A stretch of DNA of 64,000 nucleotides, from IMG/VR virus record IMGVR_UViG_2974789816_000001; one strand, 5' to 3'. The notes under the pieces were generated by a model. That model was not told where the DNA came from. It searched no databases and saw only the letters and a program-made list of their open reading frames with translations. Both the position numbers and the translations under genes were made by a program. Positions 707-62,100 of the stretch are shown here, piece after piece (the first letter of the stretch is position 1; each line of letters starts with the position of its first letter). Source of the DNA: a virus (taxonomy: Duplodnaviria > Heunggongvirae > Uroviricota > Caudoviricetes > Crassvirales).

Positions 707-1288
707 TTGTGTAATATGATAAGATTTGCTACATTAAAAGCCTCAGGAGAATGCAGGCAGTTGGTAATTGATGCTTCTATAGAAGCATACTCCTTCTATG
801 ATGATGTCTATATTGACTCAGTAGTCATAGATACTCAGGATACCTTCATGACCTCTGGGCCATCATCAAGCAGTGTATATACAAAAAGCATTGATGGTAA
901 TTCCAAGCATGTGACATTAATCCTAGACAAGACAGATTTCAATGCAGCAGTAGATTTTGGTAAGGACTTATTCTTTGTCTATATTACTGTCAAAGGTACA
1001 ATGGCACCTGATACTCCATGTGGATATGACAGATATTATGATTTAGGAATAGCTGTCAATATGCATAACCTTTATAAGTCACTGATGGGTGGCATCAGAC
1101 AGGTAGAGGAGACTTGCAATATTCCCAAGCAGCTTATAGACAAATACCTTCAACTGAAGGCTTTTACTACTTCCTTAAAGACAGGGAACTATACTTTGGC
1201 AATAAAGTATTGGAACAAGTTCTTTAGGAACTGTGTGATAACAGATGATACAAGTACTAAATGTGAATGTTCATTATGGATAACTTAA
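707..1288 (+). CDS. hypothetical protein
   Basis: 193-aa ORF, no recognisable motif, same strand as the structural block. Confidence 0.4.
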   Translation: MCNMIRFATLKASGECRQLVIDASIEAYSFYDDVYIDSVVIDTQDTFMTSGPSSSSVYTKSIDGNSKHVTLILDKTDFNAAVDFGKDLFFVYITVKGTMAPDTPCGYDRYYDLGIAVNMHNLYKSLMGGIRQVEETCNIPKQLIDKYLQLKAFTTSLKTGNYTLAIKYWNKFFRNCVITDDTSTKCECSLWIT

Positions 1289-1725: not shown

Positions 1726-2400
1726 ATGACATACAGAGAATTAGTTTATTTATGTCTGGATGAGGTAAAGAGTATATCAGATGACTCTACTTTCAATGAG
1801 AATCATATTATACTTTTGGCAGATAAGTATAGGGCATTCCTTATAAAGCAAAGATATTCTGATGTTAAGAAGCATATACCTGAAAGCAACTATCAGACTA
1901 TATGTCTGGATTTGACCAAATCAGTATCTCCTTCTGATTCATGTGGCAGAACCTATCTTATGAGTAAGGAAGAGGTACCTAATATATTAAGTGTCAGTAA
2001 TACCAGAGTATATCCTATTGATTTCTATCAGGATAGTATAACCTTCATAAGCAGGGATAGGATGAGATATGTAGGATATGACAAATATCTACAGAACATA
2101 ATATATTGCTCCCTTGCTCCGGATAACCACTTGTATTTAATCTCTATGAATCCCCAATTCCTTTACCTCTCCAAGATAAAGGTAACTGCTATATTTGAAG
2201 ATGCCAGCATAGCCTCTGAATTGGAATGTGGAGACAATAAGGAGTGTGATGTGCTTGATAGGAAATTTCCTATTGAGGAGAGCCTTGTTACTCCTCTTGT
2301 AAGTCTTATAGTAGGAGAAGTACTGGGTGCTAAATACAGACCTGATGATAATAAGAACAATGCTAAGGATGATTCATCTGATGTTTCAGTAAAGCAGTAA
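1726..2400 (+). CDS. Hypothetical protein. Start moved to the internal Met (MTYRELVY...); the first 34 codons of the listed ORF are A/T-rich intergenic-looking sequence.
   Basis: ORF 1624..2400. The N-terminal 34 residues are low-complexity I/N/F/Y-rich. Confidence 0.4.
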   Translation: MTYRELVYLCLDEVKSISDDSTFNENHIILLADKYRAFLIKQRYSDVKKHIPESNYQTICLDLTKSVSPSDSCGRTYLMSKEEVPNILSVSNTRVYPIDFYQDSITFISRDRMRYVGYDKYLQNIIYCSLAPDNHLYLISMNPQFLYLSKIKVTAIFEDASIASELECGDNKECDVLDRKFPIEESLVTPLVSLIVGEVLGAKYRPDDNKNNAKDDSSDVSVKQ

Positions 2401-2403
2401 CCT

Positions 2404-2958
2404 ATGAGTGATTGTCAAGAAGAGTATAAGAAATGGAAGGAGTTTAGGACATCAGTGTGCCACTTGAATGAACATAGAACACATAAGGTGTCAGGTTCCT
2501 TGGGTGTATATGATGCCTATAAGTATATAAGGAAAAACAAGTGGTTTGACATAGGCAGGCCATTGACTGAGCATGAGTTTTACAGCATTATAAGAAGAGT
2601 CAACAACTATCTGGCTGAAGAGCTGCTTAAAGGACATGATATTAGTCTTCCTCATAGGATGGGAAGACTGGAGCTGAGAAAATATGATGCCAAAATCTAC
2701 CTTAAAGATAATAAGGTTGTCACCAACTTGCCAATAGATTGGGATAAGACATTAAGGTTATGGTATGAAGACAAGGAATCTTATGATAATAGGACTTTAG
2801 TTAGAATGGAGGAGAAAGAGGTATTTAAAATCCATTATAATAGAAGTAAGGCAGACTATAATAACCAAACCTTTTATGAGTTCAATCCCAATAGAGAATT
2901 AAGGAAAGAATTGAAGAAGAGGATAAAAGATGGCAAGATTGATGCCTTCAAGTGTTAA
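2404..2958 (+). CDS. hypothetical protein
   Basis: 184-aa ORF, tightly packed, no motif recognised. Confidence 0.4.
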   Translation: MSDCQEEYKKWKEFRTSVCHLNEHRTHKVSGSLGVYDAYKYIRKNKWFDIGRPLTEHEFYSIIRRVNNYLAEELLKGHDISLPHRMGRLELRKYDAKIYLKDNKVVTNLPIDWDKTLRLWYEDKESYDNRTLVRMEEKEVFKIHYNRSKADYNNQTFYEFNPNRELRKELKKRIKDGKIDAFKC

Positions 2959-2994
2959 ACTAAAGGATTGTAGAAATTTAATTGAGATGGATAA

Positions 2995-3702
2995 ATGATT
3001 AATAATATTCAATATACTAACATCAGACAGATACTGGATAGACTGAAAAGGCATCCTCTATTGCAGAACCTTACACTTGAACAAGTGATATCCCACCTAG
3101 TTACATTTATTGGGATATTTGGAATGCCAGAGTTATATTTAAATAAGGAGAGTGTACTGCATATAGAAGAGTTTAGGGCCATATTACCCTGTGACCTTGT
3201 ATCCATAAATCAGGTGAAGGAGTGTAAGACTGGGATATGTTTAAGGAGTATGACAGATAATTTCATGCCTAGAGAACATCGTGATAAGTATGAAGGACAT
3301 AAAAGACCACAAGAGTTTGCCTTTAAGACACAAGGCAGAGTAATATATACTTCCTTCAAGTCAGGAGATATAATGGTCTCATATAAGTCTGTTCCAATAG
3401 ATGAGGATGGGTTTCCATTGCTCATAGACAATCCTATGTTTATGAGAACACTTGAGCTATATATTAAGATGGAAGAGTTCACTACTTTGTTTGATATGGG
3501 AAAGATTTCTCCTGCTGTATTACAGAACACCCAACAACAATATGCTTGGTCAGCAGGACAATTACAGAGTGAATTTACTATACCATCACAATCTGAAATG
3601 GAATCAATAAGCAGAATGTGGAATACTCTTATTCAAAGGACAAGTGAGTTTGATAATGGATTCTCTTCTCTTGGCAATAAAGAGTATATAAAATTGCAAT
3701 AG
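2995..3702 (+). CDS. hypothetical protein
   Basis: 235-aa ORF. Its stop abuts the start of the 1453-aa gene (3702/3704). Confidence 0.4.
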   Translation: MINNIQYTNIRQILDRLKRHPLLQNLTLEQVISHLVTFIGIFGMPELYLNKESVLHIEEFRAILPCDLVSINQVKECKTGICLRSMTDNFMPREHRDKYEGHKRPQEFAFKTQGRVIYTSFKSGDIMVSYKSVPIDEDGFPLLIDNPMFMRTLELYIKMEEFTTLFDMGKISPAVLQNTQQQYAWSAGQLQSEFTIPSQSEMESISRMWNTLIQRTSEFDNGFSSLGNKEYIKLQ

Positions 3703-3703
3703 T

Positions 3704-6700
3704 ATGATAAAGAAATCTACATGGCAGATAAAGGGTATGCAGAGGGACTTGTCTGTAAGCAAATTCTCTTCTGAGTATGCTTATGAGAACAAGAATATAA
3801 GGATAATGTCTACTGATGATAATACCCTGCTCAGCATAGTAAATGAGAAGGGCACTAAAGAGGTATCAAACATAGAAGGTATAGACTCTATAAAGGGATT
3901 ACCTATAGGACAAGCTACAATTAATGGTTATCTAGTACTGTTCACTACAGACCAAGACAATGGAAAAGATTACATATATAAGATATGGTTTGACAAGGAC
4001 AGCTTGCATGGAGTAATATTATATGATAGTAACAAAGGCAATCTTAACTTTAATCCTCTCTATCCTATAGAGACATTGTCATTCTATGAAGATGATAACA
4101 TACAGAAAGTATATTGGACTGATGGATTAAACCAGCCCAGAGTTATCAATATTACTTCTATAGAAGATTACACACCCAATTCTTTTGACTTTGTTATGAG
4201 TTTGAATCCCGGTTCAACTGTTAACATAACCAATATAGAAAAAGGGTATAGTGGGATATTCCCGTCAGGGGTAATACAATATTGTGTTACAGTCTATACC
4301 AAGAATGCTCAGGAGTCCAATATACTGGCTATATCTCCTCTATATTACATAACAAAGTATGATAATGGAGGTAGTCCTGAGGATTCTTTATCTGTGAGTT
4401 TTAATGTAACAGTGTCTGTTAAAGATGTTGCATGTGAGTATGTCAGATTATATTCAATACTGAGAACTACACAAGATTCAACTCCCATTGTCAAAAGAGT
4501 TCAAGATATAAAGTTATCTTCCTCTACTCAAACAATCAGTTTTACAGATACTGGTAATATTGGAGAGAGTATTGACCCTACTGAATTATTATACTTGGGA
4601 GGAGAAGACATATCTTGTGGTACAATGTGCCAAAAGGACAATACATTATTCTTAGGAAATATCAATGTTAATAGAATTGAGCCTGATAGCTCTATTAGAG
4701 AGTACTTCAGAGGATTAAATGTAAACCTCAATACAGTTACCACAATTAATTTGGGAACACCTTCTGGATATTATCAACATGAGTTTCAGTTGAATAACAA
4801 CTCTAGCACTATTAAGATATTTAAATATTTGGAGTGGTACAGATTTGGCATACAGTTTAAGCATAAGTCAGGCAGGTGGTCTTCTCCAGTATTCATAAAA
4901 GACGCTCAGATTACCAAAACACCCGGTACTAATGACTTATATGGTAGTTTTGGTGTTTCAAATCTGGTATTCTATAAGTGCATACCTGAGGTATCATTCA
5001 ATGATGATACCATAATTGGTAAACTAAAGGATTTAGGATATATTGGATTCAGACCTATAATAGTATATCCCTCTATAGGGGATAGAGAAGTAATATGCCA
5101 AGGAGTTTTATGTCCCACTGTTTATAATGTTGGTGACAGATTCAGTAATTCCCCATTTGTACAGTCTTCTTGGTTCTCAAGACCCAACATTCCCTTTGAT
5201 GTGATGAGGTCAGAGTCTGGGGATGCAGGCTTGCCAGATGTGTCACCTATATTTGATGTTCCTGAAAAGGCATTATATAGTGACCAAACCTTGTCAAGAT
5301 ATGGTATAATAAATAATGATAAGCAGTTTTATTCTCCTAATGAGTCGGTTAATATAAATATTTCCTTGATTGATACAGGTACTTGGGCTGAGTGTAGGCA
5401 TAGTAGTCCTATACCAGGAAACACTCATAGGAATGCGGAGATACAGAATATATCCTACCCTCCTGCCACTCCACGCCTTGCAGGAGGAAACCATTTGCTG
5501 ACAGATTTTAGTGAATATGTGGAGAAGCATAAACATGAGTTTTTTGTAGACCAATCAATAGTTACTCTTCATTCCCCAGATATTGAATTTAACAGTGAAG
5601 TTGAGAATTATGATATTTCCAAGTGTAAGCTGAGGATAATAGGTGCAACTTTGGTAACTGCCAGTGTAGGGGATATTGACATTGTAACTTCTACCACAGG
5701 AACTACCATGGTTGGTGCAGGTGATAAGAAGTTCCCACCAACAGGGTTTTACAAAGAGTCTTGTGGTAGTGTCAACATATCCCCTTGGGCATTCAGAAGC
5801 CAATTGGCTAATATCAACTGGATAGATAATATTCAAAGAGACCTTGGTGATGTTATGCCCTCACAATATAGAAGGATGCAGGTAGGCTTTGCCACATATC
5901 CTTGGCATAGGAGTGGAGGTCTTGATGGTACAGGCTGGGCAGATGAGAATGGATATAGACCTGCCAAGTTACAGTATAAGAGGCTATCCAATTTGAAATT
6001 CTCTGCCACTAACCTGTACCTTAGCAGTACTAGTACATGGAATTCAGGGGAACTTGCAGATGCACAGATTTTTAATTCAAACGAGGTTACTCCACTCAAA
6101 TTGAAGGCTCAGGAGCATTCTGGAAAAGGTACTTTAGTGTACTATGGAAATGTGGATAAGATTACTTCAAATACTGAATATTCAGGTAGTGATTATTACC
6201 AGATTGTAACATCTTCCACCTATAATCAGAATGATACCTCATATACTAACCACGACATATATGTTGGTGACTTTACACCTACCATACCTTTCACTGATAA
6301 CTCAATAAATAAGGCATATGACCCTGTACACATAAAGTACAAGTCTACCCCTCATGCTGTTATTGTACTTGAAGACAAGTACAACTTGGGTAAGTACTCA
6401 TATAAGGTTTTGCCTACTATCATAGATGGTAATGATTATGGAGAGCCTACATCTAGTAGTTGGCCTGTAAACCGTGTTGCAATAACTCATGATGGTGCCC
6501 CTAACTTCTGGGATACTTTGGAAGTATACAACTCTGTGTCTCAGGATGTTATAGGAGACTTTGTAGGTACTGGTCCTAATAAGACAGTTAAAAGTATCCA
6601 ATACGGCTGGTGGTGGTTAGCAGAATTATACAGAGATGATGTCACCAATAGGTTTGGAGGAGAGTCTGATGATGCTATACAGAGTAATCAATGGTTACCA

Positions 6701-37909: not shown

Positions 37910-38446
37910 TTACTTAATTCCTGTTGAGCCAAATCCTAATCTATTTTCATTGCCCAAATCATCTACTTCCACAAGTTCAATACCTGAACTTAGCAGCCAT
38001 TTAATCTTCTGCCACATAGTAGCTTTCTGACTAAGCTGTATCCTAAATTGACAGATTCTGTCACCTGCTTCAATAGTGGTCTCTCTCATAGGAGAACATA
38101 CATAGTGCCACTGGTCATCATTGCCATTATATATGTTATCCACTACACCTTGACCATTTGGGATGAATAATCCTAACTTCTTAGGACCACTACTCCTTGA
38201 ATCAATAATAGCTTCAAATCCTTGTGGTAGTTGCATTGCAACTCCAAGAGGAATGTAATAGGTGGGAATCTCTACATCCCTATGACCTACTCTCTCTCCT
38301 TCAACAGTTTTTCTCTTAAGAACATTAGCCTGTGGTGCAGGAATAGTGATGTCTATAGCAGACCTTAAATCTACCCAATCACCATTCTCATTGATTACAG
38401 GCATACATCCCTTAGTCAATACTTTTACTTTAATTTTCAATTTCAT
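37910..38446 (-). CDS. dut: dUTPase
   Basis: Motif 1-like NGDWVDLRSA, motif 2 RSSGPKK, motif 3-like GQGVVDNIYNG. Confidence 0.6.
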   Translation of the reverse strand: MKLKIKVKVLTKGCMPVINENGDWVDLRSAIDITIPAPQANVLKRKTVEGERVGHRDVEIPTYYIPLGVAMQLPQGFEAIIDSRSSGPKKLGLFIPNGQGVVDNIYNGNDDQWHYVCSPMRETTIEAGDRICQFRIQLSQKATMWQKIKWLLSSGIELVEVDDLGNENRLGFGSTGIK

Positions 38447-38906
38447 GTTTCCAAAATTTATTTGTTATGTCTACCAGCTCCTTGCCACTTACCTTGTAGA
38501 ATCTCTGATTAGTAGTCCTACTGTTAAGTGGTCCAAACTCTTCCTTATAAGGTCCTAACTTAATAAAGTCAAACCACTGTAACTGTCTTGCTACTATACC
38601 AGCAAGTTCCTGTCTGCCACTATACCAAGCAACTTTAAGATGGGTGTGTGTCTTCACCCAACTTGCCAAAGCTACTAAGTGTATAGCATCACTATCTCCA
38701 CCCATAAAGGACACACAGGACACTCCTTTGTTACCCTCAATAAGCTCACTAAGGGATGATTTATTTAGGGGTTTTCCAATATCCTGTGCCAAGTAAGAGC
38801 TATGACAGTTTTTGCACCCATTTTTACATCCTGTAATATTTATACATAATGTAATTTCGTCAGGCACCTCTGCAAATGTTACTTGAGTACTCAAATATTT
38901 CAACAT
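38430..38906 (-). CDS. nrdG: anaerobic ribonucleotide reductase activating protein NrdG (radical SAM)
   Basis: CxxxCxxC cluster GCKNGCKNCHSSY. Size ~158 aa. Adjacent to nrdD. Confidence 0.65.
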   Translation of the reverse strand: MLKYLSTQVTFAEVPDEITLCINITGCKNGCKNCHSSYLAQDIGKPLNKSSLSELIEGNKGVSCVSFMGGDSDAIHLVALASWVKTHTHLKVAWYSGRQELAGIVARQLQWFDFIKLGPYKEEFGPLNSRTTNQRFYKVSGKELVDITNKFWKHEIEN

Positions 38907-39588
38907 ATCTTTTAACTATATTAAGGTTATCTATAGGTAGGGGATATTTTTCCACTAAGGTATTAAGATATTCCATATCTCTATCCTTCTTATAAGCAAC
39001 TGCCTCTTCCAAAGTTTTGAAATTTCTATTAACCTTAGCAAACTTCCTCCTCAATCTAACACAATATGTATTATGAGGAGTAAGATAAATACCCTTACCT
39101 ATAGTTGAAATAAAAGTGTTAATCTCTGGAGGTAAGAGAATACAAGTATTAGGAGAGTATATTTTGGGAATATTTAGTATAAGAGATTTGCAATCTTTAT
39201 CTATTTCGAGACTATGACTACTATCTCCATTTTCTTCATACCATCTCCTAAAATTTGAATATATCTTGAACTCTTCTGATACTATTATCCCCTTAGCTCC
39301 ATAAGTACTGTAAACAGGACATTTAGGGTCATAACATCTCCTCTCCATATTCTTCCAAACATTATAAATATGCTTATCAGTAATAGACTCATCACAGATA
39401 AATCCATATTCATCTCTCTTATCTGGATTAGAGACATTACCATATTGGGCACTATCTAATCTAAAATATAGCCTTCTGGTGTATCCCTCAAAATGTCCTG
39501 TGTAATAGTACCTATTCCTTACTTTCTTTGTTGATTTACCTTCTATTACCAAGACATCACCACAACTTTGTAAAATTTTATCTTCCAT
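38860..39588 (-). CDS. Free-standing homing-endonuclease-like protein, with an AP2-like DNA-binding C-terminus and a phage 'WxxMxxRC...YGxxGI' N-terminal module.
   Basis: IYNVWKNMERRCYDPKCPVYSTYGAKGIIVSEEFKIYSNFRRW resembles a module recurring in phage HNH/AP2 endonucleases. C-terminal YCVRLRRKFAKVNRNFKTLEEAVAYKKDRD is AP2-like. It sits in the classic nrdD-nrdG homing-endonuclease insertion spot. Confidence 0.4.
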   Translation of the reverse strand: MEDKILQSCGDVLVIEGKSTKKVRNRYYYTGHFEGYTRRLYFRLDSAQYGNVSNPDKRDEYGFICDESITDKHIYNVWKNMERRCYDPKCPVYSTYGAKGIIVSEEFKIYSNFRRWYEENGDSSHSLEIDKDCKSLILNIPKIYSPNTCILLPPEINTFISTIGKGIYLTPHNTYCVRLRRKFAKVNRNFKTLEEAVAYKKDRDMEYLNTLVEKYPLPIDNLNIVKRYVEIFEYSSNICRGA

Positions 39589-39650: not shown

Positions 39651-40793
39651 TTATACACCTTTACTATAAACTCTTTTGTTAGCTTCAATCTGCCTATCTT
39701 TACCAAATGATTTAATAGGTCTTAAATACCCTATCACTCTTGTATATTGAGTAATATTCTTACTATGGCACTTTGGGCATTCAGTGATAGGATGCTTAGT
39801 AATGTAGCCACAATCATCACACTTACTATTAGGAATATTAAATGTGAAGTAGTTAGTTCCATTAGCTATAGCAAAATCTATAAGCTTGAGATACTGCTCC
39901 TTGCTCAAGTGGTCTTCCAAGTTGATATGAGCTGCACTTCCCCCATCAGTATATTGGTAAGTCTGTCTCCCATGAAGTATAAACTTATCAAGTACTGAGG
40001 TGTCATCATGTGCATCATAGAAGTATGAATTGTACAGGTTCTCATCATCAGGAACCCAATATCCATCCTCTTTATCCCAATTATAATTCTTTCCTCCTAA
40101 CCCTTCAGCAGGAACTACCTCAGAATTGAATAGGAATGGTCTATTGGCATCATGGATAGAATGTATCTTGTTCTGCTCTTTGATAGTACCAAGAACCAGT
40201 TGCAGGAACTCAATATACTCCTTGTTGTTGCCAACAGTCATACCTAAGAATCTTGCAGCCTCATTCAAGCCATTGATACCTATAGTACTATACAATTTGA
40301 TGATGTGAATATACCCGCCATTTGAAGCAGCAAACATACCCTTATCTTCAAGTTCATATAGCATTGTCTTAAATGCAACATGGTACTTGTAGACTCTTTG
40401 GAGAATATCTACTAAGTAATCTCTAAGAAATGAAGTATTTTCTTTCCATCCTCCATTCCTCTTCAATCCATAAGCCTTGTTGCAATCCTGCACAATCCTA
40501 TTGATATTAAGAGTGATTACATTGCATGAACCTGTCATTACACCAGTAAGACCTGATGTAGGATTGAAAGTATTCTCTGCAAGCTCATTCCTCAATCTAC
40601 AACATGATGCAAGACTATCAGCACTATCTGAAATATAGGTGAAGAAGCTATGGCCTTCTGCATACATTTCAGCAGTAAAGTCCTTATACTCCTTATCTAT
40701 GATGTCATTAGTCTTTGGGTCATACACCATAGCCATAGTTTCCACGGGGAATGTAAGTATCTGCTTGGTTCTTAACTTATTGAAGAACTTCAT
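39651..40793 (-). CDS. nrdD: anaerobic ribonucleoside-triphosphate reductase NrdD, 3' exon (C-terminal ~380 aa)
   Basis: Glycyl-radical motif TRVIGYL near the C-terminus, preceded by a C-x2-C...C-x2-C zinc ribbon (CDDCGY...CPKCH). A conserved SCCRL thiyl-radical region is present. Confidence 0.75.
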   Translation of the reverse strand: MKFFNKLRTKQILTFPVETMAMVYDPKTNDIIDKEYKDFTAEMYAEGHSFFTYISDSADSLASCCRLRNELAENTFNPTSGLTGVMTGSCNVITLNINRIVQDCNKAYGLKRNGGWKENTSFLRDYLVDILQRVYKYHVAFKTMLYELEDKGMFAASNGGYIHIIKLYSTIGINGLNEAARFLGMTVGNNKEYIEFLQLVLGTIKEQNKIHSIHDANRPFLFNSEVVPAEGLGGKNYNWDKEDGYWVPDDENLYNSYFYDAHDDTSVLDKFILHGRQTYQYTDGGSAAHINLEDHLSKEQYLKLIDFAIANGTNYFTFNIPNSKCDDCGYITKHPITECPKCHSKNITQYTRVIGYLRPIKSFGKDRQIEANKRVYSKGV

Positions 40794-41854
40794 AAACAGC
40801 CTTTGCAGGCAATCTATTGCCTCCCACTGGGGCTTGGTTCCATCAGGATAATAGAACTCTCCAAATAGTGAATCAAAATATGTGTGGTCATAATAAGATA
40901 CATTTGTAACATTATGTTCACATAGAGTCGTTAATTCTATGCAGTTCTCTTATGAACTTCTTATAGTTTCCTATAAGTTCAGACTATATCATTACTCAAA
41001 AAATGAGTACCCCCAGCTTCCACTCACTTGAGTGTACTTCCATAAAGGAATAGTCGTTGAACCTTACCAATAAATTGGTCTTGGCTGCTGATTGCCATAT
41101 CTTATGACTTAGGGTTCCAGCAATTCAAGGGGTTTATAGTCCACCTACAACTGACCATGTATTTTATGGTGGCACATAGAACACACTGTTATTAGATTAT
41201 TAGGATTATTCAGCTCTTTGTCTTTAACAGCAATCTCGTACAATTTATCTGCATCATCTACTGGTGATAATGGATAATTTTGTATAATAATTCTATTAAG
41301 AATAGACTTAAATGGAATTAAATGATGCACATGTAGGCTATCTTTACTACCACATATAACACATTGATTGCCATCTCTGCAAAGTATGTCCTTTTTCAGA
41401 GAGTCATCACTACAATATTCTCTAATTCTTTGAGATAGTGTAGAAATTCCACCCTTCCAATTAGGATGATTATCTCCTGTCATCAGACCTACCTTGCTTT
41501 CTGAATTATTCCTAATTTTAATACCTAAGTTCTTCAGAACTCTATCAATAACACAAGGGTCACAATTATATCTAATACCAAGCTCTTTCTTTGAAAGACC
41601 CTCTTTCAAATATAATCTTTCCATGACTTCTTTATTGCTAAAGTCTTTAGGAATTTCTTTGGATTTGAAATTCCATTGTGACTCTGATAGAGTTCTTCTC
41701 TCTATAGTATGCTTTTTTAATCTTAACAAGATTGTTCTATGAGAAGTCCCAAACTGTTTTGCTATTTCAGTTGAGGACTTACCTTGTAAATACAAGTCAA
41801 TAATAGTACTATCATCTAAATCTTTTCTATGTGCAGCCATAATTATAAATTATT
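40794..41854 (-). mobile_element. Putative group I intron interrupting nrdD, carrying an HNH homing-endonuclease ORF. Its boundaries are approximate.
   Basis: The nrdD reading frame is split into an N-terminal ORF (41855..42802) and a C-terminal ORF (39651..40793) by ~1.06 kb containing an HNH ORF plus ~350 nt with no ORF. T-even phage nrdD introns are a precedent. Confidence 0.5.
41145..41840 (-). CDS. HNH homing endonuclease (intron-encoded) with N-terminal HTH
   Basis: CVICGSKDSLHVHHLIPFKS...NLITVCSMCHHKIH (HNH with Cys pairs). GDNHPNWKGG motif. N-terminal GKSSTEIAKQFGTSHRTILLRLKK HTH. Confidence 0.8.
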   Translation of the reverse strand: MAAHRKDLDDSTIIDLYLQGKSSTEIAKQFGTSHRTILLRLKKHTIERRTLSESQWNFKSKEIPKDFSNKEVMERLYLKEGLSKKELGIRYNCDPCVIDRVLKNLGIKIRNNSESKVGLMTGDNHPNWKGGISTLSQRIREYCSDDSLKKDILCRDGNQCVICGSKDSLHVHHLIPFKSILNRIIIQNYPLSPVDDADKLYEIAVKDKELNNPNNLITVCSMCHHKIHGQL

Positions 41855-42802
41855 TTATGCTGCAAGGATATAAAATTTATTTGAAAGTACCAAATTTCTT
41901 AATGGACTTTGATATGACCTATTACCAGCAGGCTGATTTACACCATAGATAAACTGTTTGAATGCTTTATATATGGCATCTCTTACAGTCCTCTGCTTAC
42001 TGCAATGGTCTGTAGTAGTTACTACATCCAACTTTTCATACCAATTAGGACCAAATTCCTGCACAATGTAATAGTTAAGGGCAATAAAGTATTCACCTAT
42101 TGCCACTGCACCTTTACACTGAGAAGATAGCAAGAAGATAAGATTGGTTACTTGACCACTGAATGATTGCAGGTCATTAGGAGGTGTTGGAGTGATACCA
42201 TCAATATTGCCAACTCCTTCCATCATAAGAGGATACAGACTCACAGCCATACAATACTGCTTCAAGACAGGAGTGGCTGCTTCATCATGTGTATAAATAA
42301 CATGAGAGTTCAAATCCTCTTCATACTTCTTAGCTACTTCAGGATACATTTCATTCAGCTTGTCTTTCATCCTTTGCCTCTGAATAACCCTATTAGTAGT
42401 CTTATATACTTCACCCTCAAGGTTGGCAACATTCTTCATAGTTACATTTGCATTAGCATCTGTTTCTGATGAAGTGGCTGCATTTTCATTAGACTGACTA
42501 TACTCATCCATATAATCAATTCTTTCTCTAATGAATCTTGCCTGCTTATGCTGCTCTCTATAAATGATATAACTCCTTGCTACATCAAAGTGTTTGTCAT
42601 TCATAAGAACATCCTCAACCTTATTCTGTATCTCCTCAATACCTATAGTATCTCCTTCCAAAGTACCAAACAAGGCACCTATCATATCATACAGATATTG
42701 AGGCATTTTCTTGTTGCAAGACTTAAAGGCTTTCTCTACAGCACTTATAATCTTATCAACATTAAATTCCTCTATACTGCCATCTCTTTTTATTACTTGC
42801 AT
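41855..42802 (-). CDS. nrdD: NrdD, 5' exon (ATP-cone + N-terminal core). The 3' end of this ORF probably reads into intron sequence.
   Basis: The N-terminus MQVIKRDGSIEEFNVDKIISAVEKAF is a textbook ATP-cone start. Confidence 0.7.
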   Translation of the reverse strand: MQVIKRDGSIEEFNVDKIISAVEKAFKSCNKKMPQYLYDMIGALFGTLEGDTIGIEEIQNKVEDVLMNDKHFDVARSYIIYREQHKQARFIRERIDYMDEYSQSNENAATSSETDANANVTMKNVANLEGEVYKTTNRVIQRQRMKDKLNEMYPEVAKKYEEDLNSHVIYTHDEAATPVLKQYCMAVSLYPLMMEGVGNIDGITPTPPNDLQSFSGQVTNLIFLLSSQCKGAVAIGEYFIALNYYIVQEFGPNWYEKLDVVTTTDHCSKQRTVRDAIYKAFKQFIYGVNQPAGNRSYQSPLRNLVLSNKFYILAA

Positions 42803-47559: not shown

Positions 47560-48767
47560 AATATTAAATATTTTTGAAGTGCATCAATATACCCTTTGAT
47601 ATAATCATTTTCAGGGAGTTTTGTAAGCTCCTCTATCATATCATGGGCACAAATAGCACAAATTTCTGTTTCATCAAAGCCAAGCTCTTCCAACTTCTCA
47701 TCTGTCACATACCATGTCAGATATTCTGCATAGGTATCTGCCCACATTTTGAAATTTTCCATGCCTTCTTCACCCTTACCAAATCTCTTTTCATACAATG
47801 CAGGCATTGACTTAGCCCATTTGGTAATGTCAATCTTACTATCATTAGAGATAATAATGCTGCCTGTAATCAATTGAAGTACAAGAAGCTTCAAAGTAAC
47901 TTTATCAAATGATACTTGACCATAAGGCATGTCATATTCCTCTTCAAATGGCAAGTCATCTATATCATCAAAAAAAGTTGGCTGAACTACCTCAGGCTTA
48001 TTAGCTTCCTTCTTGACAAGATTTGCTGGACCTGCCTTTGTACCATAGGAATTAGCAATAACAGGTTTATAACCACCTTGATATGTAGGTGTCTGAGCTT
48101 TCTTGGCTTTCTCTGCCTTAGCTTGCTTGATTTCTTCAAGTCTTGCATCCATATCAGGGAAAGAGTAGTTTTCACCCTCTTTCTCTATTTTAAGGTAGAA
48201 CCATTCAATCTCATCTGCATTGCTTGCATATTTCTTAGTATCATGCTTTTCACCATCACCAAAGAACTCATATACTAACATGTCCTTAATTTGACTATAT
48301 CTTTTTACTCTCCTGGTAATGGCGGCAGTATAAGTACCTGCATTATTCACAATGAGAGATACAAAGTTATTTCTATCCCTACCTTCCTCCTTCAGAGTAG
48401 CAGTATCTGTTCCACTAAAGAAGGTACTCATATTGTTATGGGAATGTATAAGACCCATTTGGCAATCAAGTAGCTCAGGATTCTCACACATATAGGCTAT
48501 CACATCAGGATTCATATCAAACTCTGTATAGGCTTGAGTACCAATATCCATAATGTAAATATCCACACATCTTATTACAAGGTCATTATTTTCAAATGAA
48601 CCTTCATGTGTAAAGAATAATGTACCTGACCATTCAGTACTCCACACCTTTTGGCAGGCAAATCTTATCTTTCTCTCCACTTCTGCTGGGATAATCAGCT
48701 TATAATTATAAGTACCTGACTTCTGTACCAAGCTGATTACTTTCGTGGGTTGCTTTATTTCTTCCAT
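47556..48767 (-). CDS. JAB/MPN+ (JAMM) metalloprotease domain protein with a ~240-aa C-terminal extension
   Basis: GLIHSHNNMSTFFSGTDTATL = H-x-H-x7-S-x2-D JAMM zinc motif, with an upstream Glu. Its stop overlaps the E1-like start by 4 nt (ATGA). Confidence 0.6.
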   Translation of the reverse strand: MEEIKQPTKVISLVQKSGTYNYKLIIPAEVERKIRFACQKVWSTEWSGTLFFTHEGSFENNDLVIRCVDIYIMDIGTQAYTEFDMNPDVIAYMCENPELLDCQMGLIHSHNNMSTFFSGTDTATLKEEGRDRNNFVSLIVNNAGTYTAAITRRVKRYSQIKDMLVYEFFGDGEKHDTKKYASNADEIEWFYLKIEKEGENYSFPDMDARLEEIKQAKAEKAKKAQTPTYQGGYKPVIANSYGTKAGPANLVKKEANKPEVVQPTFFDDIDDLPFEEEYDMPYGQVSFDKVTLKLLVLQLITGSIIISNDSKIDITKWAKSMPALYEKRFGKGEEGMENFKMWADTYAEYLTWYVTDEKLEELGFDETEICAICAHDMIEELTKLPENDYIKGYIDALQKYLIL

Positions 48768-62028: not shown

Positions 62029-62100
62029 TATCTCCAGTGAGACTCGAACTCACATTGAATGCTTAGAAGGCATTTGTTCTATCCCTTGAACTATGGAGAC
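62029..62100 (-). tRNA. tRNA-Arg (anticodon UCU). CCA is not encoded.
   Basis: Manual cloverleaf of the reverse complement. Acceptor GTCTCCA/TGGAGAT (one G-U). D arm GTTC-AAGGGATA-GAAC. Anticodon arm AATGC-CTTCTAA-GCATT (U33, UCU, A37). Variable CAAT. T arm GTGAG-TTCGAGT-CTCAC. Discriminator A. 72 nt. Confidence 0.75.

Follow-up and report, generated by a model that had tools for sequence, protein, structure and literature searches.

We analysed a 64,000-nucleotide stretch of DNA from a Crassvirales virus (IMG/VR record IMGVR_UViG_2974789816_000001; hereafter the window) and find that nrdD of this crAss-like, Steigviridae-related phage, the gene for the large subunit of anaerobic ribonucleotide reductase (RNR), is very probably interrupted in phase 1 of codon F301 by a mobile IA-type group I intron carrying an HNH endonuclease gene. 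Judged by its Rfam E-value and by its recurrence at one site in public contigs, the feature lies far beyond chance. An earlier note on this DNA, made from the letters alone, had described three open reading frames (ORFs) on the minus strand, at 41855..42802 (315 aa), 41145..41840 (231 aa) and 39651..40793 (380 aa). All three are present as described, the first starting with an ATP-cone and the last finishing with a zinc ribbon and RVIGYL, and Pfam confirms ATP-cone and NRDD for this outer pair. The borders drawn in the note need correction: the insert measures 992 nt (41901..40910) rather than about 1.06 kb, and the roughly 350 nt taken as non-coding (40794..41144) consist of exon 2 coding sequence (40794..40909) and ribozyme core (40910..41144). 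The locus is laid out as follows.

41902..42802, minus strand: nrdD exon 1, 901 nt, codons 1-300 and the first base of codon F301; ends ...AGUCCAU
40910..41901, minus strand: group I intron, 992 nt; begins UAAGAAA and finishes ...CAUAAUG, the terminal G being 40910
39651..40909, minus strand: nrdD exon 2, 1259 nt with the stop codon; begins UUACAAAUG
41841..41901, minus strand: leader from the 5′ splice site to the HNH start codon, 61 nt
41145..41840, minus strand: HNH endonuclease gene, 231 aa, positioned in loop L1 of the intron
41902..41908, minus strand: 5′ strand of P1, AGUCCAU, its last U forming the U.G wobble at the 5′ splice site
41138..41144, minus strand: 3′ strand of P1, GUGGACU, the internal guide sequence, complementary to AGUCCAU at 7/7 positions
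41145..41150, minus strand: P10 part of the guide sequence, UUGUAG, pairing with UUACAA, the first six bases of exon 2
40910..41150, minus strand: ribozyme core, 241 nt, downstream of the HNH gene and overlapping the last six bases of its ORF

Excision of 41901..40910 leaves an open frame of 2160 nt that encodes a 719-aa NrdD. The insertion falls inside the motif NQPAGNRSYQSP/FTNVSYYD (here and below, a slash within a protein or DNA sequence marks the insertion site), and the joined reading across it is ...QSP-F-TNVSYYD. The predicted ligated RNA reads ...AGUCCAU-UUACAAAUG, or in its longer form ...CAAAGTCCAT-TTACAAATGTATC, and the intron-free DNA form of the junction is AGTCCAT/TTACAAATG. The joined protein aligns without a gap at the junction to the uninterrupted NrdDs of IAS virus (725 aa, 78.5% identity), cr85_1 (717 aa, 87.7%) and bajarodcaudo virus 1 (747 aa, 84.4%), which bears out the proposal of the earlier note that the two halves make one NrdD of normal length. 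At the DNA level, megablast similarity to the same three intron-free genomes ends at 40909 and resumes at 41901. The NRDD domain is divided between the exons: its N-terminal half lies in exon 1 with the ATP-cone, and its C-terminal half lies in exon 2 with the zinc ribbon (CxxC...CxxC) and the glycyl-radical motif, RVIGYL, so that only the joined exons bring ATP-cone, NRDD barrel, zinc ribbon and glycyl-radical motif into one polypeptide. Specifically, Pfam finds ATP-cone (PF03477) in the joined product at 78.5 bits and NRDD (PF13597) at 274 bits as a single stretch over the junction that takes in positions 3-560 of the 562 in the profile. Residues 110-713 match 4COI, the structure of a Thermotoga NrdD (E = 2e-55). 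Exon 2 coding sequence extends 116 nt (40794..40909) upstream of its first in-frame ATG (40793), and these 38 codons are conserved in intact NrdDs. The exon 1 frame does run on into the intron, as the earlier note presumed, for 15 codons rather than a few, to a TAA at 41857..41855 within the leader.

The window was scanned against Rfam at gathering thresholds, and two families matched it, Intron_gpI and one tRNA. Intron_gpI (RF00028) matches the minus strand at 41203..40960 with 96.6 bits and E = 1e-23 against a gathering score of 50, in line with the group I intron that the earlier note had called probable. The sequence 5′-UUGUAG-GUGGACU-3′ at 41150..41138, which takes in the HNH stop codon, combines the P10 and P1 guides: it forms a perfect 7-bp P1 (AGUCCAU with GUGGACU), the splice site being marked by the canonical U.G wobble, and a 6-bp P10 between UUGUAG and UUACAA, the six bases after the G at 40910. 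The intron ends in ...AAUG, with terminal G, in every copy. The helices of the core, all on the minus strand, are listed below.

41133..41128 with 41014..41009: P3
41122..41117 with 41091..41086: P4
41112..41095: P5/P5a
41085..41061: P6/P6a
41055..41051 with 40986..40982: P7 pseudoknot (GACUA with UAGUC)
41050..41038: P7.1
41034..41021: P7.2
41008..40994: P8
40977..40960: P9, with a GAAA loop
40958..40943: P9.1
40942..40920: P9.2

The hairpins P7.1 and P7.2 (UUCC with GGAA and CACUC with GAGUG, at 41050..41021) are accompanied by compensatory changes and, as predicted structures, mark the intron as IA-type. The unconstrained minimum free energy (MFE) fold of the minimal, ORF-less allele contains P1, P3, P4, P5/5a, P6/6a, P7.1, P7.2, P8, P9, P9.1 and P9.2, and all core helices persist in the MFE structure of the full 1,009-nt precursor. 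There is no P2 and no room for one. We rejected the P2 of the Rfam alignment (model positions 1-50 at 41203..41151, the 3′ end of the HNH ORF), because the gap between P1 and P3 is only 4 nt, the sequence is missing from ORF-less alleles and the aligned pairs are non-canonical. Three extra same-strand occurrences of the P7 9-mer GATATAGTC, at 48301, 59593 and 61170 (about 0.8 expected), were likewise considered as further introns of the window and dismissed as chance matches: they have no partner strand or core motif, one lies within a 403-aa ORF that is intact, and an nhmmer search based on the intron alignment gives the nrdD copy alone.

The helices are supported by covariation in an alignment of nine sequences, comprising seven distinct nrdD copies with the endonuclease cassette removed in silico and the hand-trimmed cores of contig L006 and of an intron in Bacillus phage vB_BceH_LY2 (hereafter LY2). 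Over 15 helices, 97.4% of the cells form a standard pair, compared with 32-41% in slid controls and a mean of 90.8% in shuffles, and 25 of the 77 pairs are changed on both sides, compared with 3-6 in slid controls and 5.0 ± 1.9 in shuffles. Neither observed value was reached by any of 500 shuffles. P7 is invariant in this alignment.

The window intron can be described as a minimal intron with a 747-nt cassette, made up of the 61-nt leader and the HNH ORF, inserted in the P1 loop and flanked by TAAG...TCAG, so that P1 spans about 750 nt. The tail of the HNH ORF, CAG TTG TAG (its last codons and stop), corresponds to the ancestral loop and guide sequence; the stop codon UAG (41147..41145) thus falls inside the guide sequence, 1 nt before the P1 strand. 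Exon and guide vary together among the copies, as follows.

Window and most copies: exon AGUCCAU, guide GUGGACU, 7/7 paired
L028 and L036: exon AGUCCGU, guide GCGGACU, 7/7 paired
L038: exon UCUCCGU, guide GCGGAGA, 7/7 paired
L041: exon AGUGCGU, guide GCGCACU, 7/7 paired

P10 likewise occurs in several exon/guide versions, UUACAA/UUGUAG in the window, UUGUUA/UAACAG in L041 and UCAC/GUGG in L038. Four co-varying exon/guide combinations indicate that P1 closes over the endonuclease gene.

The middle ORF is an HNH endonuclease gene, as the earlier note had it: its 231-aa product exceeds the Pfam cut-offs for HNH (PF01844, 28.6 bits against 21.4) and HNH_2 (PF13391, 25.5 bits against 21) and falls in the PHROGs family phrog_8446, 'HNH endonuclease' (4e-29). 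The C-terminal motif CVIC...HVHH...NNLITVCSMCHHKIH is intact as C160xxC...H172H173...N...C220xxCHHxxH, and the N-terminal part contains two helix-turn-helix (HTH) modules, for which HTH families score just under the Pfam cut-off. A sequence search of solved structures gave no meaningful relative (best E = 0.004, to an HTH protein), and therefore no link to structurally characterised intron HNH enzymes is demonstrable. The family is large and has no informative name in the databases searched. We found 88 homologues, with identities grading down to 37%, and the cluster at 99% identity to the window protein has 787 member sequences. Relatives sharing 70%, 64% and 51% identity with it all have their genes at the same nrdD position, one such same-position relative lying in a 151-kb contig with different neighbouring genes. 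Some versions are short, at 143-203 aa (P0030, 143 aa; P0017, 181 aa; P0031 and P0004), and the gene in L029/L018 (IMGVR_UViG_3300045988_065572), 99.6% identical, is 1 nt shorter, with a frameshift expected. From their sequences, these short and frameshifted copies look like decay, as expected late in a homing cycle.

More than 15 independent public contigs have the same element at the identical site, and the site is polymorphic for its presence. It is empty in IAS virus, cr85_1 and bajarodcaudo virus 1, each with an uninterrupted coding sequence, and in cr111_1 and MT836281, where a tblastn match runs unbroken over the site. An ORF-less intron of 245-248 nt occupies the identical site in three IMG/VR loci (L008, L017 and L019), with the junction AGTCCAT/T(C/A)AG-TTGTAG-GTGGACT... 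and without the leader. The intron with an HNH gene is present in the window and at least ten IMG/VR contigs, and further cases come from ENA and Logan. Some ORF-less alleles have TAAG and others TCAG, a pattern that excision of the cassette through recombination between the two 4-nt repeats may explain.

In addition, the exons around the intron are mosaic. The intron and its endonuclease gene are 95-100% identical to those of the window even where, as in L012/L024, flanking exon identity is no more than 70-80%, and such a near-identical intron in divergent exons indicates recent horizontal spread. In L020, L021 and L027, exon identity is 96-100% for 50-200 nt beside the intron and then falls abruptly, in L021 from 100% to 81%. 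These breakpoints fit co-conversion and are suggestive of it, not proof.

Several points weigh against the reading of the element as a mobile, self-splicing intron. Only nine sequences make up the covariation alignment; two were hand-trimmed, and one of the nine also served to derive the structure. The long-range P1 is absent from the MFE structure of the full precursor, forcing it costing only 1.1 kcal/mol. Raised exon identity at the junction is in part protein conservation, as the identity of intron-free alleles is highest there too. In this intron lineage an Rfam score by itself is not a dependable criterion: with permissive filters and a limit of E ≤ 0.01, RF00028 still misses L028, a copy with 90% identity in the core, and is blank on the Lak megaphage loci L033 and L034, the core motifs of Lak-B5 (L033) being obvious. 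We take these misses as insensitivity of the model, not absence of an intron.

We considered whether the HNH insertion has truly split nrdD, such that the halves are translated separately and assemble while the ribozyme is inactive or irrelevant. Such an arrangement has a precedent, since in Aeromonas phage Aeh1 nrdA is reportedly split by mobE and its halves form an active reductase, and here both halves do appear as ORFs, exon 2 having its in-frame ATG at 40793. Against this, the coding sequence of exon 2 runs on upstream of that ATG with no start codon, so that the conserved codons would be lost. The ORF-less 245-nt alleles still interrupt nrdD, which is sensible only if they are spliced. 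Furthermore, the core, P1 and P10 are kept by compensatory changes where the endonuclease is only 51-70% identical, which argues for selection for splicing. A genuinely split NrdD is thus very improbable. An intein or a group II intron deserves practically no credence: its only support is that an endonuclease gene interrupts a conserved enzyme gene, whereas the insert is out of frame with a stop 15 codons past the junction, Pfam finds neither a Hint/intein domain nor a reverse transcriptase, and the only Rfam families that match the window are Intron_gpI and tRNA. The intein-like arrangement that the earlier note named as an alternative outcome is therefore not what the locus contains.

A different question is whether the intron splices and has lost its mobility, the HNH protein of the window copy being inactive and the element inherited vertically, like the T4 nrdB intron (PMC2988022). 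The truncated and frameshifted copies elsewhere (P0030, P0017 and the 1-nt deletion in L029) and the existence of ORF-less alleles speak for decay. The window protein, however, is full length at 231 aa with the CxxC...HH...N...CxxCH motif intact and is 99% identical to the 787-member cluster, and the near-identity of the intron across divergent exon backgrounds points to recent transfer. We judge an immobile window copy improbable, and retain the mobile group I intron as the reading of the locus.

On this reading of the locus as a mobile intron, catalytic splicing and the activity and target of the endonuclease are deduced from anatomy and family membership. The gene would be transcribed as a single precursor, in which AGUCCAU at the end of exon 1 would pair with GUGGACU some 750 nt downstream to form P1, and the 241-nt core (P3-P9.2) would fold. 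Two standard transesterifications would then remove the 992-nt intron and ligate the exons into an mRNA for the normal 719-aa NrdD. During co-infection, the HTH-HTH-HNH enzyme most likely cuts or nicks intron-free nrdD at NQPAGNRSYQSP/FTNVSYYD, and recombinational repair would copy the intron, together with adjacent exon sequence, into the cut allele (homing).

The MFE folds also contain one structure at the start of the endonuclease gene.

41804..41892, minus strand: predicted nested hairpin around the HNH start codon (AUG 41840..41838)

In this hairpin the leader pairs with HNH codons 10-12. The same nested hairpin appears in the MFE folds of the window, L028, L036 and L038, with the compensating changes GGUAC/GUACU, GGCAU/AUGCC and GGU/ACC, and recalls the hairpins that restrain translation of T4 endonucleases (PMC2988022). 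A regulatory role, suggested by these models, may be proposed. At the other end of the gene, a ribosome terminating on the HNH ORF would cover P1/P10. With the stop codon in the guide sequence and the start codon in a conserved hairpin, translation of the HNH protein and splicing probably compete on one transcript.

Interrupted nrdD genes also occur in other phages. In Lak megaphages the gene is split several times, at about 2090..3497 and 3684..4476 of L033 (Prevotella phage Lak-B5) and about 2116..3498 of L034 (Lak-A2). One IA-type core of Lak-B5 (GUUCAACGACUAU...GAUAUAGUC) ends exactly at the window's site (...QSA/FVNFSYFD), and the end of a second, at ...FPV/.., lies about 55 codons further downstream. 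In Lak-A2 the window's site is uninterrupted, the break lying about 15 codons upstream, roughly at the T4 intron position. Two introns are also present in nrdD of three crAss-like Logan contigs of 50-99 kb (L038, L039 and L040; locus about 4100..4939). Their intron at the window's site encodes an HNH relative of 241 aa, the ORF of which continues across the guide, P3 and P4 as far as a stop codon in P5; the second intron has a related core and a NUMOD4/HNH_3 endonuclease gene and lies at FPV/ETMAMV, about window residue 356. A broader proposal, which we offer tentatively and consider somewhat unlikely as a whole, is that placement in the P1 loop acts as a switch between a transcript spliced to give NrdD and one translated to give the endonuclease, that this stretch of nrdD is a shared hotspot with at least three insertion sites for related IA-type introns (in crAss-like phages, Lak megaphages and the unclassified 151-kb contig), and that scaffolds have been exchanged with Firmicutes phages.

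The window also contains the following features.

38430..38906: nrdG activase gene, downstream of nrdD
38860..39588, minus strand: 242-aa ORF between nrdD and nrdG
62029..62100, minus strand: tRNA gene (Rfam tRNA, 65.4 bits)

The 242-aa ORF matches the PHROG 'HNH endonuclease' families phrog_953 (1.7e-28) and phrog_374 (1e-26), and has no Pfam family; a catalytic HNH motif could not be recognised in it. IAS virus, whose nrdD and nrdG overlap, lacks the ORF, as do most of the related contigs, and only L027 and L029/L018 have copies of it, 99-100% identical. By these matches it is probably a second, free-standing homing-endonuclease-like element; in T4 the corresponding gap between nrdD and nrdG is occupied by mobC, a free-standing HNH gene.

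Published examples of nrdD group I introns exist for gut Bacteroides phages, and the window intron adds another case rather than a new mechanism; our literature search found no earlier report of such an nrdD intron in this phage family. For annotation, nrdD of these crAss-like genomes is one functional gene and not two fragments with an orphan HNH gene, and the exact junction 41902/40909 lets pipelines join it. Intron surveys of gut phages that rely on RF00028 alone will undercount. All stages of the homing cycle, empty site, ORF-less intron and intron with endonuclease, are held in the natural population, and these abundant human-gut phages could serve as a field system for selfish intron spread by co-infection. 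The HNH enzyme is a candidate new sequence-specific nuclease, whose putative target is a highly conserved reductase motif.

By DNA, the nearest relatives of the ribozyme are introns of Herelleviridae, in the portal gene of LY2 (78% over 203 nt; 85 bits in Rfam) and in the endolysin gene of Staphylococcus epidermidis phages (86-87% over 78 nt). They share P7, P7.1, P7.2, P9, P9.1 and P9.2 with the window, with compensatory changes, but sit in other host genes, belong to phages that infect another bacterial phylum, and lack an ORF in L1; the LY2 intron has a P2 and a large P5 extension, and the Staphylococcus intron is without an ORF. Separately, the LY2 portal gene (L004, 375..3848) is annotated as two pieces, the gap between them holding the intron, then two 'transposase' ORFs, and also a RAGATH-18 RNA match (70.9 bits, 1170..1233), which suggests an insertion-sequence-like element nested in or beside the intron.

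Among gut phages of Bacteroidales hosts, to which the window belongs, the closest counterparts by published description are the Bacteroides/Phocaeicola Jug jumbo phages (360-402 kb), in which nrdD is split by group I introns with HNH-type genes, often with several inserts per gene, and splicing is supported by metatranscriptome reads (PMC12880540). Delta and Zeta crAss-like phages have group I introns with endonuclease genes in MCP, PolB, primase, ATP_43b and TerL (Yutin et al. 2021, PMC7886860). These were identified from protein domains, in a study that does not mention nrdD and describes the best-studied alpha-gamma genomes as free of insertions; core genes of crAss-like phages are invaded there as in the window, but the families and genes are others. 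For placement of the endonuclease gene, the nuclear ribosomal DNA (rDNA) introns offer a parallel, P1 being among the known positions (PMC3679873): in them, as in the window, the gene lies in a peripheral loop of the substrate domain, but they are eukaryotic and encode His-Cys box enzymes.

The T-even introns, which the earlier note saw mirrored here, resemble the window intron in several respects. The T4 nrdD (sunY) intron is likewise annotated as group IA, interrupts the same conserved region of the anaerobic RNR large-subunit gene, encodes a homing endonuclease and is present in only some relatives. The mirroring holds as analogy and no further. We rejected an identical insertion site, since BLASTP pairs Y180 of T4 with Y286 of the window and likewise QTPF with QSPF, placing the T4 site 15 codons upstream; the T4 intron splits codon Y180, and its P1 is AUGAGU with GCUCAU. 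T4 introns carry their ORFs in the P6a or P9 region, and the T4 enzyme, I-TevII, is a GIY-YIG protein encoded toward the 3′ end of the intron, whereas the window enzyme is an HNH protein encoded in the P1 loop. The two NrdDs are about 21% identical. The resemblance to T4 is thus one of analogy and not of shared descent from a single insertion.

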